Shown in pieces: positions 10,350 to 62,505 of a stretch of DNA of 64,000 nt. The stretch covers positions 36,329 to 100,328 of the forward strand of contig CAIWHP010000218.1 in the NCBI GenBank assembly GCA_903912445.1, written 5' to 3'. Numbering within the stretch: position 1 is the first letter of the stretch; every line of letters starts with the position of its first letter. The position numbers and the translations under genes are program-made. This DNA is from an uncultured Lentisphaerota bacterium. GTDB lineage: Bacteria > Verrucomicrobiota > Kiritimatiellia > CAIQIC01. Below the pieces are notes generated by a model. The model saw only the letters and a list, made by a program, of their open reading frames with translations. It was not told the origin of the DNA and ran no database searches.

Positions 10350-10376
10350 CCCCGACCTAGTTTGCCCGTGTATATC

Positions 10377-11743: not shown

Positions 11744-11756
11744 GGTATCGGAGTGC

Positions 11757-13885: not shown

Positions 13886-14046
13886 TCACCACCCCGCGCG
13901 CTGCACGGCGGCAGTTCCTCTTTATGTCGAACGTGGCCCATGCCTCCCAACGCTTGGAATTGCTGACCAGGTTCGCGGTCCCCGCTAGCACAAGGGCTGC
14001 AACGCCCACGCCTGTCATCAGCTCGCCCTAGCCGAAGCCGTCGCTC

Positions 14047-31720: not shown

Positions 31721-33241
31721 GTGTCGGCCATCGTTCTAGCAACTTTTTCGGCGCGCTACCAGCACGCGGCGTTCGGCCTGCGCTATTTGCAGGCGAACCT
31801 CGGCGAGCTGCAGGCGGATTCCGCCCTCCTGGAATTCGACCTGCAAACCGCACCCGCGCTGGCCGCCGCAAAAATCCTCGCGCCCGCCCCGCGCCTCGTC
31901 GGGCTCGGCGCCTATATCTGGAACATTCCCCAGACCGCCGCGTTGCTCGCGGCCCTGCGCCGCGCCGCGCCGCAGCTCACGCTCGTCCTCGGTGGCCCGG
32001 AAATCAGCTACGCAACCGAAACGCATCCGCTGACGCCGCTGGCCGACTACGTCATCTGCGGCGAGGCCGACCTCACGTTCGCCGCGCTCTGCCGCGCCGT
32101 GCTCGCCGGCGCGCCGCCGCGGGAGAAAATCGTCCACGCGCCGCCGCCCGCGCCCGCGCAGCTCGCCCTGCCCTACGCGCTCTATACCGATCACGACCTC
32201 GCGACGCGCTTCACCTACCTCGAGGCCTCGCGCGGCTGCCCGTTCGGCTGCGAGTACTGCGTCTCGGCCATCGAGCGCGGCGTGCGCCGCTTCGAGCTGG
32301 CAGCCCTTTTGCCGGAGTTCGAGCGTTTGCTCGCCCGCGGCATGCGGCGCATCAAGTTCGTGGACCGCACGTTCAACCTCGACGCCGACTTCGGCCGAGC
32401 CGTGCTGGAATTTTTCTATTCCTATGCTGCAGGTAGGGCGCCGCCTCCGGCGGAGCCGCTCGCCGTCAACGGCTCGGCGGGACGCCTCGCCCCACCGTCA
32501 GAGCTGCAGGTGCATCTGGAAATCACACCGTCGTGCCTGACGCCACCGTGGCGCGAGCTGCTGCGGCGCGCGCCGCCCGGCCTGCTGCGGCTGGAGGTCG
32601 GCGTGCAGACCTTTTCCGAGGAAATCAACGCGCGCATCGGCCGGCAACAAACCGCCGCCGCGGCCGAGGACGCGCTCCGCTTCCTGCGCCAGGAGACCCA
32701 CGCGCTGATCCACGCCGACCTGATCGCCGGGCTGCCGGGCCAGACGCTGGAAAGTTTCGCCGCCGACTTCGACCGCATGATCCATCTCCAACCCCACGAG
32801 CTGCAGGTCGGCATCCTCAAGCGCCTGCGCGGCACGGCCATTGCGCGGCACGACGCCGAGTGGGATGTCCGCTGGAATCCCGAGCCGCCGTACGAGCTCG
32901 TCGCCAACCAGTTGCTCGACGCCGCGACCGTGGAAAAGCTCAAGCGCTTCTCGCGCTTCTGGGAGCTGCTCGGCAACCGCGGCCGCTTCGAAAACACCTT
33001 GCCGCTGCTCTGGAGCGGGCCGGGCGACTCGCCGTTTTCCAGGGTTTGGAAGCTCTGCGACCACCTTTTTCCAAGGTTTGGAAAAACCCACAGCATCCCC
33101 CTGTTCGAGCTGGCCTACGCGCTCCTCGAACACCTGGTCGCCGGCTGCGGCCTCGAACGGGCGCGCGTCGCCGCCGCGCTGCGTACCGATTTGGCGCGCA
33201 GCGGCGCGCTGCATCTGCCAAACTGGCTCGACACACCATGA
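31721..33241 (+). CDS. B12-binding domain radical SAM protein (DUF4080 type)
   Basis: GTG at 31721 (aa 96 of ORF 31436); N-terminal B12-binding-like Rossmann, rSAM motif LEASRGCPFGCEYC, C-terminal DUF4080-like region; carries an in-frame copy pair of the TTTCCAAG palindrome at 33035-33086. Confidence 0.7.
   Translation: MSAIVLATFSARYQHAAFGLRYLQANLGELQADSALLEFDLQTAPALAAAKILAPAPRLVGLGAYIWNIPQTAALLAALRRAAPQLTLVLGGPEISYATETHPLTPLADYVICGEADLTFAALCRAVLAGAPPREKIVHAPPPAPAQLALPYALYTDHDLATRFTYLEASRGCPFGCEYCVSAIERGVRRFELAALLPEFERLLARGMRRIKFVDRTFNLDADFGRAVLEFFYSYAAGRAPPPAEPLAVNGSAGRLAPPSELQVHLEITPSCLTPPWRELLRRAPPGLLRLEVGVQTFSEEINARIGRQQTAAAAEDALRFLRQETHALIHADLIAGLPGQTLESFAADFDRMIHLQPHELQVGILKRLRGTAIARHDAEWDVRWNPEPPYELVANQLLDAATVEKLKRFSRFWELLGNRGRFENTLPLLWSGPGDSPFSRVWKLCDHLFPRFGKTHSIPLFELAYALLEHLVAGCGLERARVAAALRTDLARSGALHLPNWLDTP
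33035..33086. repeat. two phased copies of palindromic motif TTTCCAAG-N-CTTGGAAA located in-frame inside the B12-rSAM CDS
   Basis: ttttccagggtttggaag (33035-33052) and tttttccaaggtttggaaaaa (33066-33086); translates in-frame as ...SPFSRVWKLCDHLFPRFGKTH.... Confidence 0.65.
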
Positions 33242-34650
33242 AAAATACCGACCGCCCGATCGTCGTCAGCCTCGTCAGCCTCGGCTGTGCGAAGAACACC
33301 GTGGACTCCGAGCGCATCCTCGGCCGCCTCGTCGAGGCGGGCTTCCTGCTCTCGGAAGACCCGGCGCTGGCGGATATCTGCCTGGTGAACACCTGCGGCT
33401 TCATCCACGACGCGCGCGAGGAATCCGCCGCGACGCTGCGCGAGCTGGCCAAGCTGCGCCAGGGCGGACAGCTCAAGGCGCTCGTCGCGCTCGGCTGCCT
33501 CGCCGAACGCGCGCTCGATGTGCCGGAGGTAGCCGCGACGCTCGCGCCCGCCGACGCCACCGTGCGCTTCTGCGACTATCCGCGCCTCGCGGAAATCTGC
33601 CGCGAGTTGGCCGGGCGCCATTCCGAAAAGAATCGGCGGCCACAGGCCGCCGCTCCAGCAGCAGGCGACTATCACCAGACCTTCCAGAATTTTCCGCGCC
33701 TGCGCATCGGCGCGGCGCACACGGCCTATCTGAAAATTTCGGAGGGCTGCTCGAATCCCTGCCGTTTCTGCGCCATCCCGCGCATCCGCGGCAAGCAGGT
33801 CAGCCGCCCGATCGCCGACCTCGTCCGCGAGGCGCGCGAGCTGCTTTCCATCGGCGCGCAGGAGCTGTGCCTGATCGCACAAGACACGACCAGCTATGGC
33901 CGCGATCTCTCGGGAAAACTTCTGCTGCCCGAACTGCTCGGCACGTTGCGCGACGAAATCTCCGACGCCGTCTGGTTCCGCCTCATGTACGCCTACCCGC
34001 TGCACCTGACCGACGCCGTGCTCGACGCGCTCGCCAGCGACAGCCGCTTCTGCCCCTACCTCGACCTCCCGCTCCAGCACATCTCCGACGCCATGCTCGC
34101 CGGGATGGGCCGCGGCATGACCAGGGCCGCGACGCTCGCGCTGCTCGACCGCCTGCCGAAAAAATTGCCCGGCCTCGCGCTGCGCACCTCGTTCATCGTC
34201 GGCTATCCCGGCGAGACCGAAAAGGATTTCGAGGAACTGCTCGCCTTCGTCCGGGAGGGCCGCTTCACGCACGCCGGCGTCTTCCTCTACTCGCACGAGG
34301 CCAAGACGCCCGCCGCCCAGCTCGCCGACAGCCTGCCGCCAGCCGTCAAGCAGGCCCGCCGCGACGCGCTGATGGCGGCGCAGCTGGACGTCTCGCAGCG
34401 GCGACAGGCCGCGCGTGTCGGCCAGGAATTTTCTGTGCTGGTGGATGAGCCCGTCGAGCGCGGCGCCAAAGTTCCCAAGGGCGTCCGCGCCATCGCGCGC
34501 AGCCAGCACGAGGCCCCGGAAGTGGATGGCGTGGTCATGCTCCGCGGTGCCGCCGCCGGACGCCTGCAGCCCGGCGCCTTCGCCACCGCGCGCGTCGTCG
34601 AAAGTCTCGATTACGATGTGATCGCGGATGTTGTGCCGACGAAGGGATGA
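33238..34650 (+). CDS. rimO: ribosomal protein S12 methylthiotransferase RimO
   Basis: ATG at 33238 (aa 236 of ORF 32533), overlapping upstream stop as ATGA; MTTase N-domain, rSAM CxxxCxxC (SEGCSNPCRFCAIP), TRAM domain; 470 aa. Confidence 0.9.
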   Translation: MKNTDRPIVVSLVSLGCAKNTVDSERILGRLVEAGFLLSEDPALADICLVNTCGFIHDAREESAATLRELAKLRQGGQLKALVALGCLAERALDVPEVAATLAPADATVRFCDYPRLAEICRELAGRHSEKNRRPQAAAPAAGDYHQTFQNFPRLRIGAAHTAYLKISEGCSNPCRFCAIPRIRGKQVSRPIADLVREARELLSIGAQELCLIAQDTTSYGRDLSGKLLLPELLGTLRDEISDAVWFRLMYAYPLHLTDAVLDALASDSRFCPYLDLPLQHISDAMLAGMGRGMTRAATLALLDRLPKKLPGLALRTSFIVGYPGETEKDFEELLAFVREGRFTHAGVFLYSHEAKTPAAQLADSLPPAVKQARRDALMAAQLDVSQRRQAARVGQEFSVLVDEPVERGAKVPKGVRAIARSQHEAPEVDGVVMLRGAAAGRLQPGAFATARVVESLDYDVIADVVPTKG

Positions 34651-34685
34651 GGCCGCGGACAACCGGTGGCCGGCAGATCAACCCG

Positions 34686-35507
34686 TCACTTCACGCCATC
34701 GCGGAGCGGCACGATGTTGTAATCCTTGCCGCGCGTGACCTTGATCAGCGGCTCCAGCAACTCCACGGTGTTGGTGTACCCCACGTGCAGGAGCACGATG
34801 GCGCCGGACTGGAAGCGGTTGACGATGTTGGAGGCATACGTCATCTTGGGGTCGGGTGGCTTATAGTCCTTGTCCAACATCATCATCAGCTTCTGCCGCT
34901 GGATCCATTCATAATTGGGATCGCGCTCCCGGGCGGAAGCGGAGGACTGGTCGACCGTATTGGTTGCCGTATCCAGCAGGTTGGTGGGCCCCGCCATCAT
35001 GATGCCCGGCTTCCAATCATCGGCACTGATGGTCCAGCGCACCACCCGATAGCCCTCGGCGAACGCCACGCGCCGTAAGTTCTCATCGATCTCCCCGTAG
35101 GCCGGGCGGAAGAACGGTTTCGAGGAACGCCCCGTCGCGCGGACGATCGCGGCATCGGCGCGCCGCAGTTGCTCGACGATGCGCGCCTCCGGCGCATGCC
35201 GCAGCAGCGGATTGCTGTAGCTGTGGTTATAGACCTCGTGGCCTTCGGCCGCGATGCGTCGCGTCAGGGCGGGATGTTGCTCGACGAACTGCCCGGTGAC
35301 GAAAAAGGCCGCGGGCACACGATAATAGCGCAGCTTGTCGAGCAGCTCGGCGGCGCCGATATCGCTCTCGCGCGCATCGAACGTGAACATCACCTGCCGG
35401 CCGAGCCAGTGGCCGCGGTTGATCGTCGCCGGCGCATCGGCGGGCGCGAACAACATCGTACACCCCGCGGCGGCCAGCAGCACCAAGGAGACAAGCAGGC
35501 GTTTCAT
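34686..35507 (-). CDS. polysaccharide deacetylase (NodB-homology, CE4) lipoprotein
   Basis: ATG at 35507 (aa 33 of ORF ..35603); lipobox LAAAGC; NodB motifs FTFDA, HEVYNHSYSNP, LLH. Confidence 0.8.
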   Translation of the reverse strand: MKRLLVSLVLLAAAGCTMLFAPADAPATINRGHWLGRQVMFTFDARESDIGAAELLDKLRYYRVPAAFFVTGQFVEQHPALTRRIAAEGHEVYNHSYSNPLLRHAPEARIVEQLRRADAAIVRATGRSSKPFFRPAYGEIDENLRRVAFAEGYRVVRWTISADDWKPGIMMAGPTNLLDTATNTVDQSSASARERDPNYEWIQRQKLMMMLDKDYKPPDPKMTYASNIVNRFQSGAIVLLHVGYTNTVELLEPLIKVTRGKDYNIVPLRDGVK

Positions 35508-35742
35508 GTGGATTTTGTAGCGCAAGCGGCGACCTTTTCCAAGACTTACCGCCAGCGGCGGGCGAGGCAGCCGTGCCACGGGCGGCCCTGTTGCGCCCCG
35601 CACAACACGCTGACCGTTCTTGCTCGTCCTCGTCCTCGATAAACCCCGTGAACGCTGATCGAGGACAACGACGTGAACGAGGGACGCTTAATCTGCGTCA
35701 GACTGTTGTACGGCTCTCAATCGATGGAAAATGGCCGGGCGC

Positions 35743-36129
35743 CTACAGTAACACACAGCTTTCGATATCGGCGTCGTCGAATTCCGCCGTCCCGATCCGC
35801 AACCGCAAGGGCTCGTGGCCGGCGGCGCAAGGCAGCAACTGCGCCAGCACCAGGGTCCCCACAAACTCCGCGGGCACGCCGCACAGCGTCACGCGTACCC
35901 GGCGGTTCAGAATCAACCCGAACCGCTGTTCCAGTTCCTGGAGGGCCGCAGCCCTTTCCGAGTGGAAGGCCTGATAGCCGCGCTCGGACGGGTCGCCGGG
36001 CAACGCGGTCAGGGGCTCAGGGCGTGGTGGCACCACCGGCGGGACCGCCGGCCGGGCCGGGGCCGTCTGCGTAAAGTCCAACGCCAGCTGCGTCGTCCCC
36101 GAGGCCATCCGCTTGTCCGTGCGTCGCAT
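35743..36129 (-). CDS. hypothetical protein (128 aa)
   Basis: ATG at 36129 (aa 124 of the artefactually long ORF ..36498), 9 nt after the cobU stop; no recognisable domain. Confidence 0.35.
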   Translation of the reverse strand: MRRTDKRMASGTTQLALDFTQTAPARPAVPPVVPPRPEPLTALPGDPSERGYQAFHSERAAALQELEQRFGLILNRRVRVTLCGVPAEFVGTLVLAQLLPCAAGHEPLRLRIGTAEFDDADIESCVLL

Positions 36130-36137
36130 CGGCACTC

Positions 36138-36683
36138 CTAGGGATACGCGACGCCTTTGAGCGCCAGCGGCAGGCCGGCCGCGATGAACATGACGGCATC
36201 GGCCTCGGCCGCCAGCGCCTGGTTCAGCCAGCCGGCGAGGTCGCGGAACTCGCGGCCGAGCGCGTGCTCCGGCACGATGCCGAGGCCGACTTCGTTGCTG
36301 ACGAGAATCAGGCTCGTGGTGCGCCCGCGTATGGCGGCGAGCAGCGCCTGCTGCCGCGCCGCGACGCCGGGGGCGCCTTCCTTCACCAGCACGTTGCCGA
36401 GCCAGACGGTCAGGCAGTCGAGCAGCACGCCATCCCCCTGCCCCGCCGCACGCGCAAGCGCGCCGGCGAGGTCGAGCGGTTCCTCGACGCACTGCCACCG
36501 GTCGCCGCGCGCGGCACGGTGCTGCGCGATCCGCGCGACCATCTCCGCATCGATCGCCTCCGCCGTCGCCAGGAATACCGGGCGCGGCCAGTAGCGCTCC
36601 GCGAGCTGCTGGGCGTAACGGCTCTTGCCGCTGCGCGCGCCGCCAAGCACGAGGATCAGCCGGCCTTGGTTTGCGTCAGACAT
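36138..36683 (-). CDS. cobU: bifunctional adenosylcobinamide kinase / adenosylcobinamide-phosphate guanylyltransferase
   Basis: P-loop ILVLGGARSGKS; 181 aa; CobU/CobP family features incl. the conserved His region (IAQHRAARGDRW). Confidence 0.85.
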   Translation of the reverse strand: MSDANQGRLILVLGGARSGKSRYAQQLAERYWPRPVFLATAEAIDAEMVARIAQHRAARGDRWQCVEEPLDLAGALARAAGQGDGVLLDCLTVWLGNVLVKEGAPGVAARQQALLAAIRGRTTSLILVSNEVGLGIVPEHALGREFRDLAGWLNQALAAEADAVMFIAAGLPLALKGVAYP

Positions 36684-37516
36684 GGTGACAACCTTTCGAT
36701 GGAAAGCCGCGCGGCATCGTACTCAAACACCTCGAGCGTGACCACGCCGGAAAAGCCGCGCACCGCCTCCAGGAAACTCTCCAGCCGGCCCGGCGCGAGG
36801 GCCGTCAGCGGCAGATGGTCGCGCCCGTCGCGCTCGCCGTGCAGGTGGATCACCCGCGCCCGCGGCAGCCAGGTGCGCAGGAACGCCGGCACGTCGCCGC
36901 CGCCCCGCCAGACATGCCCCACATCGGCACAAACGCTCAAGCCGAACCGGTCGAGCAGCGGCGCGCACCACTCGAAGGGATAGTTCAAGCTCTCGACACA
37001 GAACAGGCCGGGCGGCGGCCCGTCCGCGAGCAGGCGTGGCAGCTCGGCGGCCACGTCGCGCTGCCACGCCGCGACACGCGCGGCGGAGTCGCCCGGGCCG
37101 ATACCTTCGAGGTGCAGGATGTAGCCATGCACCGGCAAGGGCGCGAGGAGTGTGATGATGCGGCGCATCTGGTCCACGTGCGCCGCGCGTTCGGCGGCGT
37201 CCGCACTGCCGAGTTTGCGGTCGGTCGGAAAATGCACGGTGTAGGTCAGGCGGTGCTGATGGCCCAGCTCGGCCAAGCGCGCGACGACTTCCGCCGAAGG
37301 CAGGTTCGCCGTCTGCTCCGACTCGAAGAGCACCAGTTCGATATCGTCCACGCGCCCGGCGAGGCGCTCGACGTTCGGCAGGATATCGGCCGGATAGACA
37401 TAGGAGGTGACGCCGACGCGAAACGGCCGCGGAAAGGGCAGCCGGGGTAAGGGTGGATGGTGGATGCCAGGAGACGGAAGCGCTGCAATATATTCTGGAT
37501 CAGGCCTTGTCGTCAT
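36656..37516 (-). CDS. xylose-isomerase-like TIM-barrel protein (sugar phosphate isomerase/epimerase family); CbiR-like candidate
   Basis: TIM-barrel sugar-phosphate isomerase/epimerase-like pattern (…VHGYILHLEG…, …VIHLHGE…); overlaps cobU start by 28 nt; the Akkermansia cobamide-remodelling enzyme CbiR belongs to this fold and sits in cobamide loci. Confidence 0.45.
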   Translation of the reverse strand: MTTRPDPEYIAALPSPGIHHPPLPRLPFPRPFRVGVTSYVYPADILPNVERLAGRVDDIELVLFESEQTANLPSAEVVARLAELGHQHRLTYTVHFPTDRKLGSADAAERAAHVDQMRRIITLLAPLPVHGYILHLEGIGPGDSAARVAAWQRDVAAELPRLLADGPPPGLFCVESLNYPFEWCAPLLDRFGLSVCADVGHVWRGGGDVPAFLRTWLPRARVIHLHGERDGRDHLPLTALAPGRLESFLEAVRGFSGVVTLEVFEYDAARLSIERLSPCLTQTKAG

Positions 37517-37549
37517 ATGCGTTTCTCATCCACCATTCACCATCCGCCA

Positions 37550-39484
37550 TCAACCATTCTCCATGGTTTCCGCCACCCATGCTTGCAGCGCCGGGAAAAG
37601 CGGCTGGTGACCGAGCGCGCGGTGGAGCTGGCGCAGCGCGGCGGGGATGTGGGCGGCAAATGCGGCCGACTCCGGCCGCGCCGAAAGCTTGGCAAAGGCG
37701 CCGAGCGCCTGGACCAGCCGCTGGATCGCGGCCAGCCAGAACAGGTCCACCGGCACCGCGCCACCACCCTCGCGCTGGTAGGCGCTCAGCAGGTGCAGCT
37801 GCACCTCTTCCGTGAGATCGGCGTAGGGATCGCAGAGCAGCGACGCGAGATCGTAGGCCGCCGGGCCCAGGCGCATCCCCTGGAAATCGATCAGGTGCGG
37901 GTGGTTCTCGCGCCAGATGATGTTGCTCGATTGCAGATCGCGATGCACCAGCACCTGCGGCTCGCGCTCCAGTTGCGCGGTGATACCGGCCAACTCCTGC
38001 AGGATGCTCGCGATGGTTTCCACCGGCACGCCGCAGCGGCGCGCCAGCATATGCTCGGCAAAATAGTCGTGCTCCCAACGGTAGAGCTCGGGCCCGAAGT
38101 CCGGCATCCGCGCCAGCCCGACGCGCCGGACCGCCTGCGCGCCCTGCGTGTGCAACAGCACGACCGGACGCAGCGCCAGTTCATACAGCGCCAGCAGGTC
38201 GGCGCGCGCGAGGCCTTTCGCGAGGTTCAGCAGGTCGCGCTCGCCCACGTCCTCGACGATGGTGAGCTGGTGCTCCGGGTCGTCGTGCAGCACCGCCGGC
38301 ACCGGCAAGCCCAGGTCCTTGAGGAAGCGCGCGTGCAGGGCGAAGAGCTTGTTCTCCGCGCGCGCCGGATCGTAGCGCATCAGGATCGCCGTCCTTGCGC
38401 CGCTCATCAGCCACACGAACGTCCGCTGCGAGCCGCGCATGCCATCGGTGGCGACGGTCGTCTGCGTCACATCAAAACCCACCGCGCGCACCGCCGCCTG
38501 CTCCGCGGCATCGAGCCAGCGCTCGGCGCGTCCGACGAGGCCGGTCACATTGTGTTCCACCAGGGTATCCGGCCCGACGACGGCGCCGAACACTTCCACC
38601 TGCGGCGCGATCCGCGCACCGGGCAACAGCACGCTCAGCTCCACGCGCGCTTCCGGCGCCACCGTCACGTTCTCCGCCATCGCGACGAAGCCCGCGCCCC
38701 GCCGCGGCAACTGGCCGGCGCGCTGCGCCAGCGCAGGATCAAAGAGCGCGCCGCCGCACCGCTGCTGCTGATGCAGTTCCATGACCGTGGCATGCGCCGC
38801 CACATAATCCATGGGGCGGCCGGCATCCGCCCAGAAGGCGCCGGGCACCACCACGCCGCGCACGACCTCGCCGCGCGCCAGCGCCGCCGTATAGGTGGGC
38901 GTCATGCTCGCGAACACCTCCTGCTGCGGCAGGAAATCCAGGATGCGCTTCGTGAGCAGGTGCAGGCCGGTGAACGTGAACAGGTCCGGCGCGCCGGCCC
39001 GCGGGCTGGTCAGGTTCAGGATGCGCCCCGCCTGCAGGTCCACGGTGCGCGGGCCGAGGTGCGGCATCAGCCAGAGCGCCGCGAGCGGCTGATGCTGCGC
39101 AAAATCCGCGAGCAGCGGCAGCGGATCGAGCGCGGCGGCGACATCGGCATTGAACAGCCAGAAGGGTCCGGCATCGGGCAGGAACGGCTTCGCGCGCACC
39201 AGCGCGCCGCCCGTGCCGAGGATTTCCGTTTCGACGGAAAACTGCACCTGCACATCGGTGCGGGGCTGCTTGGCGAGGTGCGCGCGGATGGCGTCGGCGC
39301 CGTGGTGCAGGTTGATGAGCACCTCGCGCACGCCGAAGCCGGCGAGCAGGTCGAGCGCGCGGTCGAGCAGCGTCCGGCCCCACAGCGGCAGCAGCGGCTT
39401 GGGCACCTCGCGGGTCAGCGGCAACAGCCGCGTGCCGAAGCCGGCGGCGAGCAGCACGGCCTTGGTTGGACGGGAAATTATCAC
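37550..39484 (-). CDS. bifunctional sugar-1-phosphate nucleotidyltransferase (N-term) / aminoglycoside-phosphotransferase-like kinase (C-term); MurU-AmgK-like fusion
   Basis: GTG start; N-terminus MIISRPTKAVLLAAGFGTRLLPLTREVPKPLLPL is an NTP-transferase signature; C-terminal HRDLQSSNIIWRE...LIDFQGMRLGPAAYDLASLL is an APH/choline-kinase-like catalytic loop plus DFG-like motif. Confidence 0.65.
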   Translation of the reverse strand: MIISRPTKAVLLAAGFGTRLLPLTREVPKPLLPLWGRTLLDRALDLLAGFGVREVLINLHHGADAIRAHLAKQPRTDVQVQFSVETEILGTGGALVRAKPFLPDAGPFWLFNADVAAALDPLPLLADFAQHQPLAALWLMPHLGPRTVDLQAGRILNLTSPRAGAPDLFTFTGLHLLTKRILDFLPQQEVFASMTPTYTAALARGEVVRGVVVPGAFWADAGRPMDYVAAHATVMELHQQQRCGGALFDPALAQRAGQLPRRGAGFVAMAENVTVAPEARVELSVLLPGARIAPQVEVFGAVVGPDTLVEHNVTGLVGRAERWLDAAEQAAVRAVGFDVTQTTVATDGMRGSQRTFVWLMSGARTAILMRYDPARAENKLFALHARFLKDLGLPVPAVLHDDPEHQLTIVEDVGERDLLNLAKGLARADLLALYELALRPVVLLHTQGAQAVRRVGLARMPDFGPELYRWEHDYFAEHMLARRCGVPVETIASILQELAGITAQLEREPQVLVHRDLQSSNIIWRENHPHLIDFQGMRLGPAAYDLASLLCDPYADLTEEVQLHLLSAYQREGGGAVPVDLFWLAAIQRLVQALGAFAKLSARPESAAFAAHIPAALRQLHRALGHQPLFPALQAWVAETMENG

Positions 39485-39606
39485 GGCCCGAGCTTAGCTG
39501 CCGCCCCGCCAGATTCCAAGGATGGGAAATGCGCCCGCGGCCACACGCGCGCCGCGGTTGCGCAGGCTGCGCGGCGGGCTTACGTTTTATCGACCGGAGG
39601 TGGCCT

Positions 39607-39861
39607 ATGACAGAGACAGGTATCGGTAAAGTGACGCACTACTTCGGGCATCTGGGCGTCGCGGCGATCGAGTTGCGCGGCCCGCTGAGCGTGGGCGATC
39701 TGATTCACATCAAGGGACGCACGACCGATCTTATGATGAAAGTGGATTCCCTGCAGGTGAACCATGTCGATGTCCACGCGGCGCAGGCCGGCATCAGCAT
39801 CGGCGCGCGCGTGCCGGAGCATGTCCGCGAGCACGACGTGGTTTTCAAGCTGGCGGCCTGA
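39607..39861 (+). CDS. small elongation-factor-like beta-barrel protein (84 aa)
   Basis: ATG at 39607 (aa 48 of TTG ORF 39466); MTETGIGKVTHYFGHLGVAAIELRGPLSVGDLIHIKGRTTDLMMKV... resembles the small translation-elongation-factor-like protein family. Confidence 0.45.
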   Translation: MTETGIGKVTHYFGHLGVAAIELRGPLSVGDLIHIKGRTTDLMMKVDSLQVNHVDVHAAQAGISIGARVPEHVREHDVVFKLAA

Positions 39862-39972
39862 CCGGGGTACCGGGGGATCTGGTGCGTTTTGTCTGCGGTT
39901 GGGGCGTCCCGTGAACGTTCCCCAGCCGTGAAATGCGCTTGCTTTCAGGGCGTAGAGGGGGATATTGCGGCC

Positions 39973-40542
39973 ATGAAAAAATCAATCGTCTTGCTGGCCG
40001 CGGTTCTCGGCGTCGTGGCGGTCCACGCCGCGCCGGCGGCGGACGCACCGGCCAAGGGAGAAACGAAAATGGAATCCGCTACGTTTGCCGCCGGCTGCTT
40101 CTGGGGTGTGGAAGCGGAATTTCGCGACGTGAAGGGCGTGAAGGAGACGGCTGTCGGCTATACCGGCGGCGCCGTGCCGAAACCTACCTACGAGCAGGTC
40201 TGCGCGCACGCGACCGGCCATGCCGAGGCGGTCGAGGTCCAGTTCGATCCGCAGGTGGTGAGCTACGGGCAACTGCTCGACGTGTTCTGGAAAATCCACG
40301 ACCCGACACAGCTAAACCGGCAGGGACCGGACGTCGGCGACAACTATCGTTCCGCAATTTTCTGCCACACGCCGGAACAACTGAAGGCCGCCAAGGCTGC
40401 GCTGGACAAGCTGCAGAAATCCGGAAAATTCGGCGACCGCAAGATCGCCACGCAGATCGTACCCGCCGCGCCGTTCTATCGCGCCGAGGAATACCACCAG
40501 CGTTATCTCGAGAAGCACGGCCGGGCGAGATGCCACAACTGA
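39973..40542 (+). CDS. msrA: peptide-methionine (S)-S-oxide reductase MsrA, secreted
   Basis: ATG at 39973 (aa 29) gives signal peptide [23 protein letters not shown]; catalytic GCFWG motif. Confidence 0.9.
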
Positions 40543-40606
40543 GCAGGGTAGACAGCGGCTATGGGATGGTGAAGGGCGGGGTCAGTAAATTCTTTCCAAC
40601 CATATA

Positions 40607-40675
40607 GGGGCGCAGTCTTGCTGCGCCCAATGTGTGTCGGAAACAGAATGAAAAGGGCGCAGAAAGCCTGCGCCC
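40607..40675. terminator. pair of GC-rich hairpins (shared stem GGGCGCAG/CTGCGCCC) between convergent msrA and msrB
   Basis: ggggcgcag-tcttg-ctgcgccc (40607-40628) and gggcgcag-aaagc-ctgcgccc (40655-40675); no clear U-tract, so assigned as likely bidirectional terminators from position only. Confidence 0.35.
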
Positions 40676-40705
40676 CTGCCGGCAAAGCTCCCCTACGGCC
40701 AAGCC

Positions 40706-41230
40706 CTATTTCTTCGCCGGCACGAACTTCATGGCCACTTCGTTGAGGCAGTAGCGCTTGCCGGTGGGCGGTGGGCCGTCATCGAAGACATGGCCGAGGT
40801 GCGCAGCGCACCGGGCACATTGGATTTCCGTACGCACCATGCCATGGCTGCGGTCCTCGACATATTGGACATGCTCAGCCGCGACGGGCTGATAGAAGCT
40901 CGGCCAGCCGCTGCCGGAGTGGAACTTGTTGGTGGAGCTGAACAGCTCCAGCCCGCAGCAGACGCAGCAGTAGCTGCCCGGCTCCTTGCTGTCGTGCAGG
41001 ATGCCGCAGAACGGCGGCTCGGTGCCGCGGTTGCGCGTGATGCGGTATTGCTCCGGCGTCAGTTGTGCCTTCCACTCGGCGTCGGTCTTCACGATTTTTT
41101 GCATGACCTTGGTTCCTTTCACAGGCGCAGCCGGGGCATTCGTTGCGGGCGGCTGGGCGGCGTAGCCGGCGAGCGCGCCGGCGCCGAGCAGCGCCAGCGT
41201 GAGCAGCAGGTTGTGGTTTGTCGTTTTCAT
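40706..41230 (-). CDS. msrB: peptide-methionine (R)-S-oxide reductase MsrB, secreted
   Basis: ATG at 41230 (aa 44 of ORF ..41359); signal peptide [22 protein letters not shown]; two CxxC zinc motifs ([16 protein letters not shown]); SelR domain. Confidence 0.9.
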
Positions 41231-41249
41231 CGTGTGCAACCTTACGGGT

Positions 41250-41888
41250 TCAGCTTGGATTTTCAATGCCGAGCAATGCGCGGATGGGCCGGAAGCTGCG
41301 CCGGTGCTGCGGCGTCGGGCCGAGCTCGCGCAGCGCGCGCTGGTGGAGCGCGGTGCCATAACCTTTGTGCGCGGCGAAGCCGTAGCCGGGAAACTGGCGG
41401 TCGAGCTCCAGCAGCTGGTGATCGCGCGTGACCTTGGCGATGATGCTGGCCGCGGCGATGGAGAGGCTCAGCGAGTCGCCGCGCACGATCGCGCGATGCG
41501 GGCAGGGCAGGCCCTTCACGGGCAGGCCATCCACGAGGGCAAATTCCGGCGGCGGCTGGAGCGCGGCGAGCGCGCGCGCCATCGCCAGGTGCGTTGCGCG
41601 CAGGATGTTCAGCGCGTCGATCTCGGCCACGTCGGCCTGGCCGACCGCCCAGGCGATCTCCGGGCGGCTTTGGAGGCGGGCAAAGAAAAACTAACGCCGC
41701 GCGGGCGTGAGTTTTTTCGAATCGGTCAGGCCGCGGAAGAACCCGTCGGCCTCGGCCTCGGCGAAGGCCGGCGCAATCATCACGGCGCCGGCCACCACCG
41801 CCCCGGCCCACGGCCCGCGCCCGGCCTCGTCTACTCCGGCCAGGCGCTGGATGCCCGCGCGCCAGCAATCGCGCTCGTGAGCGAGCAC
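41250..41888 (-). pseudogene. rnhB: ribonuclease HII gene interrupted by an in-frame TAG codon at 41691-41693
   Basis: N-terminal ORF 41691..41888 (…[21 protein letters not shown]…[10 protein letters not shown]) and C-terminal ORF 41250..41630 (…EIDALNILRATHLAMARAL…) are in the same frame, separated by one TAG where RNase HII homologues have Glu (GAG); otherwise intact. Confidence 0.6.
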
Positions 41889-41902
41889 GGCGGCGTCCCC
41901 GC

Positions 41903-42295
41903 TCAGGCCTTGGCCTTCGCCTTGGCAGCGGGCGCGACGACGTCGGCCACGACGTTCTCGTCGAGCTTGGTCGCCTTGCCGGTCAGCTTGCGCAGGTAGT
42001 AAAGCTTGGCGCGGCGGACGCGGCCGGACTTTTCCACCACGACCTTGGCCACGCTCGGCGCGTGCACCGGGAAAATGCGTTCGACGCCTTCGCCGTAGCT
42101 GATGCGGCGGACGGTAAAGGTTTCCGTCGTGCCACGGCCGTTGCGTGCGATGACCGTCCCGGTGAAGACCTGGACGCGCTCTTTATCGCCTTCCTTGATC
42201 TTCACGTGGACGTGCACGGTATCGCCGATGGAGAATTCCGGCACGCCGTCCTTCTTCACCTGCTCCAGATGGATCTTATCAAGTATCTTGCTCAT
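41903..42295 (-). CDS. rplS: 50S ribosomal protein L19
   Basis: [55 protein letters not shown]...; canonical L19. Confidence 0.95.
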
Positions 42296-52289: not shown

Positions 52290-52784
52290 ATGAGTTCACT
52301 ACCCTTACTTTATGTGCTGCTGCTGCTGGTCGGGCTGTTCCTGATCGGGGCGGAGATCTATCTGCCGGGCGGCGTGGTCGGCTTCCTCGGCGCGGTGGCG
52401 CTGGTTGGGGCGGCGGTCTGCGGCGCGCAGTTCGACGCGCCGTGGAATGTCCTCTCGATCCTGCTGATCGTCATCCTCGCGGCGGTCGCCAGCTGGCTCT
52501 GGATCCGCTTCTTCCCGCGCTCGAAGATGGGACGCAAGCTGACGCTCGAAGCCGATGGCAGCCAATTCAAGACCGCGCCGGACAGCCATGCGCTCGTCGG
52601 CACCACGGGCGAGGCGCTTTCTCCGCTGCGGCCGGCGGGGCTGGCGCTGCTCGGTGGCCAGCGCATCGATGTGGTCGCCGAGAGCAGCTGGATCGCCGCC
52701 GGCGCCCAGGTCCGCGTGATCGAGGTCGCCGGCAACCGGATCGTCGTCCGGCAGACCGCGCCGCCCAAGGAAACCGCTTCATGA
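52290..52784 (+). CDS. NfeD-family membrane protein
   Basis: Two N-terminal TM helices then OB-fold beta domain (HALVGTTGEALSPLRPAGLALLGGQRIDVVAESSWIAAGAQVRVIEVAGNRIVV). Confidence 0.8.
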   Translation: MSSLPLLYVLLLLVGLFLIGAEIYLPGGVVGFLGAVALVGAAVCGAQFDAPWNVLSILLIVILAAVASWLWIRFFPRSKMGRKLTLEADGSQFKTAPDSHALVGTTGEALSPLRPAGLALLGGQRIDVVAESSWIAAGAQVRVIEVAGNRIVVRQTAPPKETAS

Positions 52785-53980
52785 AATGCTTCGCGCTCCC
52801 GCTGCTGCTGGCCTGCGCCCTGCCGCTCGCCGCCCCCGCGCTCGAATGGCACGCGACCAACGACTTCGCCCTCAAGCCCGGCCAGACCCTGACCAACGAA
52901 CTGTGGCTCTCCGCCGAGACGGCCAAAATCTCCGGCGTGGCCGAGCGCGGCGTGTTCGTTCAGGCCCAGACGCTGGAGCTGGCCGGCGCGTACCGGCGCG
53001 ACGTCTGGGCGCTGGCCGACACGCTCGAGTATTCCGGCCGCGCCGAGCAGGCGGTGCGCGTCGCGGCCAAGCGCAGCGTACAGCTCTCCGGCGACATCGG
53101 CGGCACCCTGCTGGCCTTTGGCGACACGGTGCAGCTCCAGAAGAGCCTGCGCGTCGCGGACGACGTCGTGCTGCTGGGGCAGGACATCATCGTCGAGGGC
53201 ACGCTCAGCAACCAGCTCTGGGCGCTGGGCAACAAGGTCACGCTGGCCGGCGAGATCGGCGGCTCGGTGCGCATCGTCGCCGAGGAGATCACGCTGCTGC
53301 CCGGCACCAAGATCGCGGGCGACCTGCGCTACTCGTCCACGAAAGACCTGGTCAAGCCGGAGGGCGTGACGATCGGCGGGCAGCTGCTCCGCGTGGCCAA
53401 GCCGAACTTCGGCCTCGGCCTGCCGGCGCTGTCGCTCGCGCAGCTGGTCACGCTCCAATTTGCCATGTTCCTGGCGGCGCTGCTCGTCGGTCTGCCCTTC
53501 GTCTCCGTGTTCCCGCTGTTCACCTCGCGCGCGGTGACGGCGCTGCGCACGCAGTCGAACAAGTGCCTGCTGGCCGGCGGCATCGCGCTGGCGGCGCTGC
53601 CGATGGTCGCGGTGATGGCGGCGCTGACGTGGATCGGGCTGCCGCTCGGCCTGCTGCTGCTGGGCATCTACGGCGCGTTGCTCTATCTTGCCAAGATCAT
53701 CGTGGCGATCCCGCTGGCCGCCTGGCTGCTCACGCTGCGCGGCCCGGCCGGCCGCCCGCTCGGCGCGCTGCCCGTGCTGGTGGTCGGTTTGTTCCTGCTG
53801 TATATTGGCGCCGCGTTGCCATTCGTCGGGTTCGCGGTCTGGCTGGCGACGGTGCTCTATGGCATGGGCGCGCTGGTGCTCGCGCTGCTCGGCGGGCAGA
53901 AGGGGCTGCCGCTGGTCATGCTGGCGCCCGACCGCCCGCCGCCGCCCGCGCCGCCGCCGCTCGCTGGTTTTGGTCCGTAG
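52781..53980 (+). CDS. bactofilin-like beta-helical repeat protein with C-terminal polytopic membrane domain
   Basis: ATG at 52781 (aa 114 of ORF 52442), ATGA overlap with nfeD stop; signal peptide; tandem ~18-aa beta-helix rungs (...VRVAAKRSVQLSGDIGGTLLAFGDTVQLQ.../...VTLAGEIGGSVRIVAEEITLLPGTKIAGDL...), then 4-5 TM helices and Pro-rich tail. Confidence 0.5.
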   Translation: MKCFALPLLLACALPLAAPALEWHATNDFALKPGQTLTNELWLSAETAKISGVAERGVFVQAQTLELAGAYRRDVWALADTLEYSGRAEQAVRVAAKRSVQLSGDIGGTLLAFGDTVQLQKSLRVADDVVLLGQDIIVEGTLSNQLWALGNKVTLAGEIGGSVRIVAEEITLLPGTKIAGDLRYSSTKDLVKPEGVTIGGQLLRVAKPNFGLGLPALSLAQLVTLQFAMFLAALLVGLPFVSVFPLFTSRAVTALRTQSNKCLLAGGIALAALPMVAVMAALTWIGLPLGLLLLGIYGALLYLAKIIVAIPLAAWLLTLRGPAGRPLGALPVLVVGLFLLYIGAALPFVGFAVWLATVLYGMGALVLALLGGQKGLPLVMLAPDRPPPPAPPPLAGFGP

Positions 53981-53995
53981 GTTGGTTGCAAAGGA

Positions 53996-55042
53996 ATGCT
54001 GGAAAGGAGCGTTGCTATGCTTGGTAATCTTGGAATAGTGCTCTTGGCGGTGTTGGCGATCCCGGTACTGATCCTCCTCGGGACGATCTTCTATTTCCTG
54101 AAGATTTGGATCCAGGCGCTGACCTCCGGCGCACGCGTGAGCTTCTTCACGCTCGTGGCCATGAAACTGCGCCGGGTACCGCCCTCGCTGATCGTCGAGG
54201 CGCGCATCCGGCTCGTCAAGGCCGGCATCGGACTCGACACCGACCCGCTCGAAGCCCACTACCTCGCCGGCGGCGATGTCATCCAGGTCGTCAACGCGAT
54301 GATCGCGGCCGACAAGGCCGGCATCCCGCTCGTGTTCCAGAACGCCTGTGCGATCAACCTCGCCGGGCGCGACGTCCACGCCGCCGTCCAGACCAGCGTC
54401 AACCCGAAGGTCATCGACTGTCCGGACCCGGCGCGCGGCACCACGCTGCTCGACGCCGTGGCCAAGGACGGCATCCGGCTGCTCGTCAAGGCGCGCGTCA
54501 CGGTGCGCACCAACCTCAAGCAACTAGTCGGCGGCGCGATGGAGGATACGATCATCGCGCGCGTCGGCCAGGGCATTGTCAGCGCCATCGGCTCTTCGTC
54601 CTCCTACAAGGATGTGCTGGAGAATCCCGACAAGATCAGCCGCAAGGTGCTCGACAGCGGGCTCGACTCGCAGACCGCTTTCGAAATCGTCTCGATCGAT
54701 ATCGCCGATGTCTCCGTCGCCGGCGTCAGCGGCGCGCGCGAGGTCGCCAACGTCGGCGCGCTGCTCGAAACCGAGCGCGCCGAGGCCGACAAGAAGCTGC
54801 GCCAGGCCGAGGCCGAAGGCCGGCGCGCCATGGCCGTCGCCGCCGAGCAGGAAATGCGCGCGAAGACGCAGGAGATGCAGGCCAAGCTCGTCGAGGCGCA
54901 GGCGCAGATTCCGCTCGGCATCGCGCAGGCGCTCAAGGAAGGCCGGATCGGGGTCATGGATTATCTGAAGATGCAAAACGTGATGGCCGACACCTCGATG
55001 CGCGAATCGCTCGCCGGCGGCGAGGACCAGCCCAAGGCGTAA
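53996..55042 (+). CDS. floA: flotillin-like protein FloA (YqfA/UPF0365)
   Basis: N-terminal TM, SPFH-like domain with long Ala/Glu-rich coiled coil (…[45 protein letters not shown]…); classic pairing with nfeD. Confidence 0.8.
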
Positions 55043-55905: not shown

Positions 55906-56895
55906 ATGAGCAACGGAATCGGGATCATCAACGAGCAGGTGAAGGCGGAGAGCGCGTGGGTGGCGGCGCTGCGCGCGGAGATCGGCAAGGTCATCGTCGG
56001 GCAGAAATACCTGGTGGACCGCTTGCTGGTGGGCCTGCTGTCCAACGGCCACGTGCTGCTGGAGGGCGTGCCGGGCCTGGCCAAGACGCTGTCGGTCAAG
56101 ACGCTCGCCGCGGCCATCCACACCGGCTTCCAGCGCATCCAATTCACGCCCGACCTGCTGCCCGCCGACCTGCTCGGCACGCAGATCTACAGCCCCAAGG
56201 ACGGCACGTTCTCGACCAAGCGCGGGCCGATCTTCACCAACCTGCTGCTAGCCGACGAAATCAACCGCGCGCCGGCCAAGGTCCAGAGCGCGCTGCTGGA
56301 GGCGATGCAGGAGCGCCAGGTGACGCTCGGCGGCGAGACGCACAAGCTGCCCAGCCCGTTCCTCGTGCTCGCCACGGAGAACCCGATCGAGCAGGAAGGC
56401 ACCTACCCGCTGCCGGAGGCGCAGGTCGACCGCTTCATGCTCAAGCTGCGCATCACCTACCCGACGATCGAGGAAGAAAAACAGATCCTCGAGACGATGG
56501 CCGTCACCGAGCGGCAGTTCGCCGTGGCCCCCGTGGTCGAGCCGGACACGATCGCCCGCGCGCAGAAGGTCGTCAACGAGATCTACATGGACGACAAGAT
56601 CAAGGACTACATCCTGAGCATCGTCTTCGCCACGCGCGAGCCGGAGAAGTACAAGCTGGCGCTCAAGGACTACCTGCGCTACGGCGCCTCGCCGCGCGCG
56701 ACGATCTACCTCGCCGTGGCCGCGCGCGCCCAGGCGTTCCTGCAGGGGCGCGGCTACGTGACCCCGCAGGACGTCAAGACCATCGCGCCCGACGTGCTGC
56801 GCCACCGCATCATCGCCTCCTACGAGGCCGAGGCCGAGGAGCTGACCACCGACGACCTGATCGCGCGGATCCTAAGCGAATTACCCGTGCCGTGA
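55906..56895 (+). CDS. MoxR-family AAA+ ATPase
   Basis: ATG at 55906 (aa 18 of ORF 55855); Walker A LLEGVPGLAKT, Walker B FTNLLLADEINRAP; ~330 aa; first gene of Bat-type operon. Confidence 0.9.
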   Translation: MSNGIGIINEQVKAESAWVAALRAEIGKVIVGQKYLVDRLLVGLLSNGHVLLEGVPGLAKTLSVKTLAAAIHTGFQRIQFTPDLLPADLLGTQIYSPKDGTFSTKRGPIFTNLLLADEINRAPAKVQSALLEAMQERQVTLGGETHKLPSPFLVLATENPIEQEGTYPLPEAQVDRFMLKLRITYPTIEEEKQILETMAVTERQFAVAPVVEPDTIARAQKVVNEIYMDDKIKDYILSIVFATREPEKYKLALKDYLRYGASPRATIYLAVAARAQAFLQGRGYVTPQDVKTIAPDVLRHRIIASYEAEAEELTTDDLIARILSELPVP

Positions 56896-56920
56896 AAAGC
56901 TGACAAGGGCTGGAGCATTT

Positions 56921-57425
56921 CCGATTGAAGATTGCCGATTGCCGATTGCCGATTTGCGGTAGTGGAACTTAACGGAAGAAAAGCTGAAGCGTGCCGGGCG
57001 AGGTAGTGGATCATGACACCGGAAGAATTGAAAAAGCGCACGAAACAGTTCGCGCTGCGGGTGATCAAGCTGGTTACCGCGCTGCCCGACACGCCGTGGG
57101 GCCGGGTGGCGGGCCACCAGCTCCTGCGCGCGGGCACGGCGGTGGGAGCCAACTATCGAGCGGCCTGCCGCGCCCGGTCGCGCGCCGAGTTCGTCGCCAA
57201 GGTCGGCACCGTCATCGAGGAGTCTGACGAAAGCGCGTATTGGCTCGAACTCATTGTCGATAGCAAGCTGATGGATGCGAAACTGGTCACCGATCTCCAC
57301 CAAGAGGCGGAGGAACTCACGGCCATCATGACCTCCTCGCGTAAATCCGCGCAGAAAAATGCGCCCCCTTATGAATGAAAGGTTCCCTACCGCAAATCGG
57401 CAATCTTCAATCGGAAATCGAAAAT
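56921..57425. mobile_element. inverted-repeat-flanked cassette carrying a four-helix-bundle protein gene, inserted between moxR and the DUF58 gene
   Basis: Left repeat ccgattgaagattgccgattgccgattgccgatttgcgg (56921-56958); right repeat ccgcaaatcggcaatcttcaatcggaaatcgaaaa (57390-57425) is its imperfect reverse complement; cargo is the 4HB gene 57013..57378. Confidence 0.55.
57013..57378 (+). CDS. four-helix-bundle protein (23S rRNA intervening-sequence protein family, TIGR02436-like)
   Basis: 121 aa; MTPEELKKRTKQFALRVIKL...GHQLLRAGTAVGANYRAACRARSRAEFVAKVGTVIEESDESAYWLELI.... Confidence 0.85.
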   Translation: MTPEELKKRTKQFALRVIKLVTALPDTPWGRVAGHQLLRAGTAVGANYRAACRARSRAEFVAKVGTVIEESDESAYWLELIVDSKLMDAKLVTDLHQEAEELTAIMTSSRKSAQKNAPPYE

Positions 57426-57437
57426 AGCGTTTTTCCC

Positions 57438-58322
57438 ATGCTCGCCAAAGAGATCATCAAAAAAGTTCGCCAGATCGAGATCCGTACGCGGCATCTCGTG
57501 AACGACGTCTTTGCGGGCGAGTACCACAGCGTCTTCAAGGGCCGCGGCATGGAGTTCCAGGAGGTGCGCGAGTACGAGCCGGGCGACGACATCCGCGCGA
57601 TCGACTGGAACGTCACGGCGCGCATGGGCCACCCCTTCATCAAGAAGTTCAGCGAGGAGCGCGAGCTGACCGTGATGCTGCTGGTGGACATCAGCGGCTC
57701 GAACCAGTTCGGCTCCGGCACGCAGCTCAAGCAGGACCTCGCCGCCGAGCTCGCCGCCGTGCTCGCCTTCGCCGCCATCCGCAACAACGACCGCGTCGGC
57801 CTGATCCTCTTCAGCGACGAGGTGGAGCATTATCTCCCGCCCAAGAAGGGCAGCAGCCACGTCCTGCGCGTCGTGCGCGACGTGCTCGGCTTCCGCGCCA
57901 AGCGCCGCGGCACCGCCCTGGCGCCGGCGCTGGATTTCCTCAACCACACCACCGCGCGCAAGACGGTGACGTTCCTCATCAGCGATTTCATCACGCGGGA
58001 GGACCTGAAGGCCGCGCTGCGCGTCAGCGCCACGCGCCACGACCTCGTCGCCGTCGTCACGGCCGACCCGCGCGAGCGCGTCTGGCCAGCCGCCGGCCTG
58101 GTGGAATGGCGCGACCCGGAAACCGGCGCCGTCCAGGTGTGCGACACCTCGAGCCCGCGCGTGCGCCAGGCCCTGACGCGGCAGTTCGACCAGCAGCGCA
58201 CCGACCTCAAGCAGCGGCTGGCGCGCACCGGGCTGGACGTGGTCGAGGTCTGGGCCGGCGAGGCCTATGACCGCGAGCTGGTGCGCTTCTTCAAGGCGCG
58301 CGAACGGCGGCTGCGGACATGA
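57438..58322 (+). CDS. DUF58 domain protein (Bat-operon vWA-like)
   Basis: ATG at 57438 (aa 22 of ORF 57375); GEYHSVFKGRGMEFQEVREYEPGDDIRAIDWNVTAR is the DUF58 core; MLLVDISGSN vWA-like MIDAS region. Confidence 0.85.
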   Translation: MLAKEIIKKVRQIEIRTRHLVNDVFAGEYHSVFKGRGMEFQEVREYEPGDDIRAIDWNVTARMGHPFIKKFSEERELTVMLLVDISGSNQFGSGTQLKQDLAAELAAVLAFAAIRNNDRVGLILFSDEVEHYLPPKKGSSHVLRVVRDVLGFRAKRRGTALAPALDFLNHTTARKTVTFLISDFITREDLKAALRVSATRHDLVAVVTADPRERVWPAAGLVEWRDPETGAVQVCDTSSPRVRQALTRQFDQQRTDLKQRLARTGLDVVEVWAGEAYDRELVRFFKARERRLRT

Positions 58323-59296: not shown

Positions 59297-59392
59297 CCCA
59301 TAATGAGTGTCCCATGACAACCAACCACTGACCAAAGACTAATGACGAGTGACTTTCAAAAGCAGGGTTAGGATTAAGATTACGATCAAGCA

Positions 59393-60346: not shown

Positions 60347-60354
60347 GGAAATTG

Positions 60355-60576
60355 ACGATTGCAGATTGCCGATTGAAGATTTGTGGAAGGGCACACTTCC
60401 TTAGAATCAGAAAGGCAAGCTGCGCCCTTTCCCAGGCCTTGGGAAAAACAGCACTTTCGTTTGATAAGCTTTGGAACGAAGTGTGTGTGGACCTTTTTGA
60501 CACCGCCCATGGGTCATTCTTAGTCCGGTTCGCTACCGCCAATCGGCAATCGGCAATCTTCAATCGGAAATTCCGC
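60355..60576. mobile_element. second inverted-repeat-flanked insertion (same CCGATTG-rich terminal repeats) with ~150 bp non-coding cargo, between batA and batB
   Basis: Left gacgattgcagattgccgattgaagatttgtgg (60355-60387); right ccgccaatcggcaatcggcaatcttcaatcggaaattccgc (60536-60576), reverse-complement related; cargo contains one tttcccaggccttgggaaaaa palindrome (60428-60448) and no ORF. Confidence 0.5.
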
Positions 60577-60578
60577 TG

Positions 60579-62479: not shown

Positions 62480-62505
62480 TGCCGCTATACTCCGGCGGAC
62501 AATTT

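Follow-up and report, generated by a model that had tools for sequence, protein, structure and literature searches.

The cbiR-cobU locus and its upstream neighbour

The window analysed here is a 64,000-nt stretch of contig CAIWHP010000218.1 (assembly GCA_903912445.1) from an uncultured Lentisphaerota bacterium, and our subject is three consecutive genes on its minus strand: a gene encoding a nucleotidyltransferase fused to an aminoglycoside phosphotransferase (APH)-type kinase, hereafter the fused gene; a TIM-barrel gene that we assign to cbiR; and cobU (Table 1). A first-pass annotation, made from the sequence alone, had read all three as a corrinoid salvage and remodelling module, in which the fused enzyme might activate a lower-ligand or aminopropanol precursor. 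We find that this reading holds for cbiR and cobU, and that the locus probably combines two functionally separate modules in one probable transcription unit: a cbiR-cobU cassette and a sugar-salvage fusion, with N-acetylmuramic acid (MurNAc) as the most likely sugar.

The three open reading frames (ORFs) lie where that annotation had placed them, and the overlap it reported between cbiR and cobU is exact, the TGA of cbiR ending at 36656 and the ATG of cobU standing at 36683. The fused gene is the first of the unit; its stop codon is separated from the ATG of cbiR by 33 nt, and no terminator-like hairpins were found between the fused gene, cbiR and cobU. Upstream of the fused gene an 84-aa ORF and msrA are transcribed divergently, so the transcription unit should begin in the intervening gap. 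We presume this gap, by its position alone, to be the promoter region of the unit; neither a consensus sigma-70 site nor any Rfam match at E ≤ 1 was found within it. From this arrangement we infer that the fused gene, cbiR and cobU are co-transcribed.

GC content ranges from 0.59 to 0.70 per 2-kb bin across the window and is ~65-69% around these frames. Third-position GC is 0.81-0.88 in the cobU, cbiR and fused-gene frames, and we therefore take all three to be real genes. An antisense ORF of 717 aa (37457-39610, plus strand) that spans the whole fused gene lacks support from codon-position GC, and is most readily explained as a high-GC shadow artefact. Two alternative start sites were rejected. 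A codon-usage gene caller begins cbiR at 37351, which drops conserved residues 34-55, and the ATG at 37516 is the one canonical start that precedes the conserved core. The shorter NCBI version of the fused protein (P0001, 635 aa) omits P6 and A9, both of which are invariant in the family, and the GTG at 39484 was kept.

Table 1. Positions of the features discussed, in window coordinates unless a related locus is named (L003, L004 and L085 carry their own numbering).
Feature	Position	Strand	Remarks
Fused nucleotidyltransferase/APH-kinase gene	37550..39484	-	644 aa, GTG start; first gene of the unit
Nucleotidyltransferase domain, residues 8-234	38783..39463	-	Pfam PF00483; signature LLAAGFGTRLLPLT...PKPLLP
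Middle region, residues ~235-350 (~115 residues)	38435..38782	-	profile matches
APH-fold kinase domain, residues ~353-639	37568..38428	-	HRDLQSSN and IDFQGMRLGPAAYDLASLLCDPY motifs
cbiR (TIM-barrel gene)	36656..37516	-	286 aa, ATG start
Overlap of cbiR 3' end and cobU 5' end	36656..36683	-	28 nt, read from the sequence
cobU	36138..36683	-	181 aa, ATG start
orf128	35743..36129	-	128 aa; starts 8 nt past the cobU stop
Divergent intergenic region, fused gene (-) and 84-aa ORF (+)	39485..39606		122 nt; presumed promoter region
RF00174 cobalamin riboswitch in L003	13332-13549	+	72.8 bits
RF00174 cobalamin riboswitch in L085	15057-15266	+	64.4 bits
RF00174 cobalamin riboswitch in L004	15184-15381	-	36.1 bits

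Identity of the TIM-barrel protein

The TIM-barrel protein matches the NCBIfam equivalog for CbiR (NF041277) at 267.3 bits against a cutoff of 105, in an alignment that takes in model positions 1-247 of 249 and residues 32-276 of the protein. Conservation sets in at about residue 34, and the 33 residues before it are not conserved. Across 16 homologues (47-100% identity) D58, E60, E65, H95, D99, H135, E175, D198, H201, H224, H234 and E262 are invariant, all of them Asp, Glu or His, the residue types that serve as metal ligands in the TIM-barrel superfamily. Homologues at 54-82% identity from Kiritimatiellota metagenome-assembled genomes (MAGs) are called CbiR by NCBI. On the profile match and the invariant residues the protein is predicted to be CbiR, the cobamide-remodelling phosphodiesterase, as had been suggested at first pass from its fold. 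CbiR cleaves cobamides to adenosylcobinamide-phosphate (AdoCbi-P) and alpha-ribazole (Mok et al. 2020, PMC7733943), and cobamide genes neighbour 80% of cbiR homologues (PMC7733943). Both cbiR and cobU are ordinary members of known families, and the placement of cbiR beside a cobamide gene is the published norm.

It is worth considering how the same gene looks without the CbiR profile. Pfam sees in its product only the generic xylose-isomerase-like TIM barrel AP_endonuc_2 (PF01261, 48.7 bits), homologues are labelled 'sugar phosphate isomerase/epimerase' by the Joint Genome Institute (JGI), and the gene stands directly behind one for a sugar-activating enzyme, so that it might be taken for a sugar isomerase or epimerase partnering the upstream sugar kinase/nucleotidyltransferase, with cobU a bystander. 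We regard this as very improbable: the full-length equivalog match is 2.5 times its cutoff, the overlap with cobU is kept in relatives, homologues outside the clade of the window retain cobU and lie near cobS, cobT and btuFCD with no fused gene beside them, and the TIM-barrel gene occurs in 0 of the 60 fused-gene loci outside that clade that have at least 1.5 kb of downstream flank. The TIM-barrel protein does not fall far from CbiR and does keep the company of corrinoid genes, and the corrinoid reading of cbiR-cobU stands.

The window protein shares with the characterized CbiR of Akkermansia muciniphila (Amuc_1679) the same NCBIfam equivalog, the AP-endonuclease-2 TIM-barrel superfamily, conserved His, Asp and Glu positions and a host in the Planctomycetes-Verrucomicrobia-Chlamydiae (PVC) superphylum. 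Unlike at the Amuc_1679 locus, cobU alone stands beside the cbiR of the window, overlapping it and following a gene that is not a corrinoid gene, with no riboswitch. CbiR-type remodelling, first shown in Akkermansia, would accordingly extend to free-living freshwater PVC bacteria in the form of a compact cbiR-cobU pair without a riboswitch, although the NCBI pipeline already annotates such genes as CbiR and the assignment itself adds little.

cobU and the cbiR-cobU pair

The product of cobU matches Pfam PF02283 at 201 bits and passes the cutoff of the NCBIfam equivalog NF004469 (PRK05800; 199 bits, cutoff 161), carries the P-loop GGARSGKS at residues 14-21, and at 181 aa is of typical length. 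In these respects it resembles CobU of Salmonella enterica, and it is predicted to be the bifunctional adenosylcobinamide kinase / adenosylcobinamide-phosphate guanylyltransferase; in contrast to the Salmonella gene, it is paired with cbiR rather than set in a cobUST operon. What CbiR produces, AdoCbi-P, is what the guanylyltransferase activity of CobU consumes, and the overlapping genes can therefore be read as a two-step remodelling or salvage cassette, in which the main role of CobU is probably the guanylyltransferase half-reaction on the CbiR product.

The overlap likely reflects translational coupling of cbiR and cobU. It measures 28 nt also in the contig that encodes P0002 and in locus L085, and 34 nt in L082, a locus of MAG CAZSUU01 that lies outside the clade described below and in which cbiR-cobU is ~5 kb from cobS, cobT and btuFCD-like genes. 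The pair seems to move as a unit. In L082 (5250-9400) it follows a same-strand metal-transporter operon (ZnuA, ABC_tran and ABC-3 domains) after a gap of 155 nt, while the cobT, cobS and btuFCD-like genes lie no more than 7 kb away and are transcribed in the other direction.

No other cob or btu gene was found in the window by Pfam on 53 of the 55 called genes, and the CobT, CobS, BtuF and BtuC proteins of relatives gave no tblastn match to it. The first-pass annotation had noted that cobU is without further cob genes in the window, and had read the locus as one of salvage and remodelling rather than de novo synthesis; both points agree with these searches. We take CobT, CobS and CobC to be encoded elsewhere in the genome. 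Cobalamin riboswitches (RF00174) are likewise missing, window-wide at the Rfam gathering score and at E ≤ 1 in 33000-42000. The window holds just one further B12-related gene (31721-33241, plus strand), ~3 kb away from cbiR-cobU and on the other strand. Its product, a radical-SAM enzyme with B12-binding, Radical_SAM and DUF4080 domains, is a likely consumer of cobamide, and a MiaB-like methylthiotransferase gene (33238-34650, plus strand) begins within it. A B12 radical-SAM gene whose product is 33% identical to that of the window also lies near cbiR in locus L081.

The fused nucleotidyltransferase-kinase

In the nucleotidyltransferase half of the fused protein, G15, G17, R19, K29 and P30 are invariant in the family alignment (A1), and the G-x-G-T-R...P-K-P signature is present. 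The kinase half is matched by Pfam APH (PF01636, residues 357-574, 77 bits) and by NCBIfam AmgK (NF045759, residues 353-623); here H514, R515, D516, N521, D533, Q535 and G536 are invariant in A1, making up the H-R-D-x-x-x-x-N loop and the D-F/Y-Q-G metal-binding motif. The top NCBIfam match of the N-terminal half is MurU (NF045761 at 96 bits, cutoff 250; NF045697 at 72.9, cutoff 370), and that of the kinase half is AmgK (NF045759 at 73.7 bits, cutoff 550; NF045698 at 63, cutoff 500), which leads the next kinase family (27 bits) by ~47 bits. The likeness to MurU and AmgK seen at first pass is therefore real for both halves, each best matched by the expected family and each under its cutoffs. 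Because the equivalog thresholds are missed and a middle region is present, we describe the protein as MurU-AmgK-like by sequence, without assigning it to either family.

That middle region sets the fused protein apart from a 'minimal' MurU, which lacks these ~115 residues. Profile matches to 7whr, 7x8j and 7d72 reach residues ~311-324, and those to NCBIfam Arch_glmU and man1P_GTase reach residues 311-313, the first part of the region aligning with the C-terminal extension of enzymes of the GDP-mannose-pyrophosphorylase type. It would be expected to adopt a beta-helix fold. Relatives of known structure found in the PDB for the first ~320 residues are such GDP-mannose-pyrophosphorylase-type enzymes together with MurU (4y7t/8hhd); for the kinase half the only one is 3csv.

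AmgK and MurU of Pseudomonas putida, which act in anabolic MurNAc recycling, have the same two reaction types and folds, and their signatures are conserved in the fusion of the window. The fusion differs from them in being one 644-aa chain in the order transferase-linker-kinase. The same pair of domains, an NTP_transferase and an APH/choline-kinase fold, is also found in the CTP:phosphocholine cytidylyltransferase LicC and the choline kinase LicA, and in the LicCA fusion of Treponema, where the transferase half also comes first. This second likeness is much weaker than that to MurU and AmgK: the fused protein is weakly similar to the LicC structure 1jyk, Pfam Choline_kinase scores 19 bits, under its cutoff, and no phosphocholine-related context was seen.

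Neighbourhoods of the fused gene across its family

Relatives of the fused gene were found in 420 stretches of a species-representative genome collection, of which the best 80 loci of the 420 were compared; a protein search places the homologues in metagenome bins of Kiritimatiellota, Lentisphaerota and Verrucomicrobia. When the CbiR and CobU of the window were searched against these loci with tblastn, cbiR-cobU was detected directly downstream of the fused gene in 4 of the 64 whose downstream flank extends 1.5 kb or more (L001-L004) and in none of the remaining 60. These four are the loci closest to the window, with fused proteins 82-56% identical, and together with it they form one clade in a neighbour-joining tree drawn without support values. 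Since the cbiR-linked loci form one clade in that tree, we take the fused gene to have come to lie beside cbiR only once, in one PVC lineage, Kiritimatiellia/Lentisphaerota-like in affiliation.

Elsewhere in the family the fused gene keeps different company. Clustering of flanking ORFs identified as the commonest neighbour, with 34 loci, a same-strand gene of ~400 aa that directly precedes the fused gene and whose product belongs to the NamZ family (Pfam NamZ_N, 199.6 bits; NamZ_C, 78.2 bits). It abuts the fused gene in 31 of the 64 non-clade loci with enough upstream sequence, and the estimated gap between the two falls within ~75 nt in 32 of the 34, with a median of -7.5 nt. Loci bearing namZ are scattered over several deep branches of the neighbour-joining tree, and the linkage spans Kiritimatiellia, Lentisphaerota and Verrucomicrobiota. 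Among them are L006, L012, L013, L021, L023 and L038, the last with namZ at 8712-10010 and the fused gene at 10007-11869.

NamZ is an exo-beta-N-acetylmuramidase that releases free MurNAc (PMC8054146), and Mueller et al. remarked that it is for the most part lacking wherever the anabolic AmgK/MurU route occurs (PMC8054146). For PVC bacteria that remark is contradicted by the loci in which namZ and the fused gene adjoin. Free MurNAc released by NamZ would be the substrate of an AmgK-type kinase and then of a MurU-type transferase, a sequence of steps that leads us to read the family as one of MurNAc salvage. The family likeness to AmgK and MurU is in this respect one of context as well, the fused gene being linked, in loci outside the clade of the window, to a gene for peptidoglycan degradation, although its partner is NamZ and not MupP or AnmK. 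In a literature search we found no description of a natural MurU-AmgK fusion, of a PVC example, or of a linkage to NamZ. As a family-wide partner, NamZ points to an undescribed route for MurNAc reuse in Kiritimatiellia/Lentisphaerota, in which NamZ would feed a fused MurU-AmgK.

In L038 and L080 a CobS-like gene comes after the fused gene; it was considered as a second corrinoid link and rejected, a transfer-messenger RNA (tmRNA) gene intervening in each (L038 12052-12406 and L080 12411-12765, both on the plus strand and just downstream of the fused gene, ~188-190 bits). The proximity of the two genes in these loci is coincidental.

Does the fused enzyme act on corrinoids?

Within the clade the association is conspicuous. 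The window, the P0002 contig, L001-L004, L084 and L085, at least eight genomes or contigs in all, carry the trio of fused gene, cbiR and cobU, and in three relatives (L003, L085 and L004) it is followed by cobT-cobS, which makes the locus complete. In these three an RF00174 riboswitch precedes cobT(-cobS), just downstream of the trio, while Rfam showed none ahead of the fused gene, either in the window or in any of the six clade loci scanned (the Rfam scan of relatives covered eight loci, L082 not among them). The riboswitch standing before cobT only, the nucleotide-loop genes of L003, L085 and L004 are split into a B12-regulated and an unregulated part. In L085 a 566-aa gene without a Pfam family (13280-14980, plus strand), found in no other locus compared, lies between cobU, which it overlaps by 4 nt, and the cobT riboswitch.

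Several observations weigh against the separation of the trio into two modules, and against MurNAc as the sugar. The trio is the only block kept in the clade while both flanks change, even where the fused proteins are as little as 56% identical; its first two genes stand 33 nt apart in the window and 23 nt apart in L084, and overlap by 4 nt in L085, where the fused-gene stop runs into the cbiR start. A retained and tightly spaced trio is also the pattern expected of a true functional partnership. Neither the window nor L001-L004 was found to carry namZ, the scores of the fused protein fall well short of the MurU and AmgK equivalog cutoffs, and the family profile matches 7whr, 7x8j and 7d72 at 130-138 bits over ~310 residues, against 109 bits for MurU 4y7t.

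One could accordingly see the fused enzyme as a working part of a corrinoid module in this clade, re-activating the alpha-riboside released by CbiR, activating a lower-ligand or aminopropanol precursor, or serving as a non-orthologous kinase and nucleotidyltransferase of cobinamide, by analogy with CobU or CobY. Formally, the two reaction types of the fusion are the pair found in CobU. With CobU already there, however, a second kinase/transferase would be redundant, and CbiR together with the CobU, CobS, CobT and CobC of the host was sufficient for remodelling when expressed in E. coli (PMC7733943). The adjacency to cbiR traces to one evolutionary event, set against the operonic association of the family with namZ in 34 other loci, and the fused gene is under no B12 riboswitch. 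Only two clade-specific substitutions were found, both conservative (F381Y and A555V), against 111 positions conserved in the clade and in the rest of the family alike, and the sequences give no sign of active-site divergence in the cbiR-linked clade. In MAG CAZSUU01, furthermore, the two modules are unlinked, contig 2 bearing the fused gene (L053) and contig 21 bearing cbiR-cobU (L082).

We consider a corrinoid function of the fused enzyme improbable, and the activation of a lower-ligand or aminopropanol precursor proposed at first pass is not upheld, the link to cbiR being confined to one clade of a family that is otherwise linked to namZ. A more specific version, in which the fusion was recruited to cobamide remodelling, for example to phosphorylate or nucleotidylate either the alpha-riboside that CbiR releases or a lower-ligand riboside, for reuse or disposal, would explain why the trio stays together with overlapping or near-abutting frames while its surroundings are reshuffled; to this too we give little credence. 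Adjacency alone would here have assigned a wrong corrinoid role to a fused sugar kinase/nucleotidyltransferase.

The choice of sugar is less settled. Structures of the GDP-mannose-pyrophosphorylase type slightly outscore MurU, and both sugar and nucleotide may differ from those of AmgK and MurU: the fused enzyme may be a kinase/pyrophosphorylase that salvages, in place of MurNAc, a sugar such as GlcNAc, mannose or some other hexose and yields a GDP- or UDP-sugar, a reading that would leave the conclusion of an unrelated neighbour unchanged. The wide shortfall from the MurU and AmgK cutoffs fits this, as do the lack of namZ in about half of the loci and an organism rich in glycoside hydrolases. 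We nevertheless think it rather unlikely: AmgK is by far the best kinase match, MurU is the top NCBIfam match of the N-terminal half, and the gene abutting the fused gene in 32 loci encodes an exo-beta-N-acetylmuramidase, with free MurNAc as its product (PMC8054146). The linkage to NamZ is our reason for naming MurNAc, and the fused protein is, judging from its sequence and that linkage, most likely a MurNAc-salvage enzyme of the MurU-AmgK type.

Proposed functions and origin of the locus

We hypothesize that the two modules differ in function. CbiR would hydrolyse the phosphoribosyl bond of an imported cobamide, yielding AdoCbi-P and releasing the unwanted lower base as its alpha-riboside. 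CobU would guanylylate AdoCbi-P to AdoCbi-GDP, and could also phosphorylate free cobinamide, after which the CobT, CobS and CobC that we place elsewhere in the genome would attach the preferred lower ligand. In the fused enzyme the APH-fold half would phosphorylate a free sugar at C1, and the nucleotidyltransferase half would convert the sugar-1-phosphate to an NDP-sugar, the likeliest route being from MurNAc via MurNAc-alpha-1-phosphate to UDP-MurNAc, as with AmgK and MurU. The fused gene would then be tied to cbiR-cobU by gene order and expression, through a shared promoter and without a B12 riboswitch, rather than by chemistry.

This arrangement may most simply have arisen in an ancestor of the clade in which a nucleotide-loop salvage locus lay beside a sugar-salvage gene, cbiR-cobU coming to rely on the promoter of the fused gene. 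In the lineage of the window, cobT-cobS would have been relocated later.

Other genes of the window

The ORF that follows cobU, orf128, has no Pfam match and a proline-rich N-terminus, and is possibly a fourth gene of the unit. Among the loci compared it has a relative only in L001 (66% identity, same position); in the P0002 contig a 124-aa gene without a Pfam match comes after cobU.

A family-2 glycosyltransferase gene and, overlapping its end, a gene for a second protein with an NTP_transferase domain (480 aa) lie within 8186-10349 (plus strand); the second protein is a separate sugar-nucleotide enzyme with no bearing on the cbiR-cobU locus. Towards the far end of the window, genes for NfeD and the flotillin FloA (52314-55042) lie upstream of an operon resembling the Bat-type aerotolerance operon (55906-63999, plus strand), which encodes a MoxR AAA ATPase, a DUF58 protein, two VWA/BatA proteins and a BatD-like protein.

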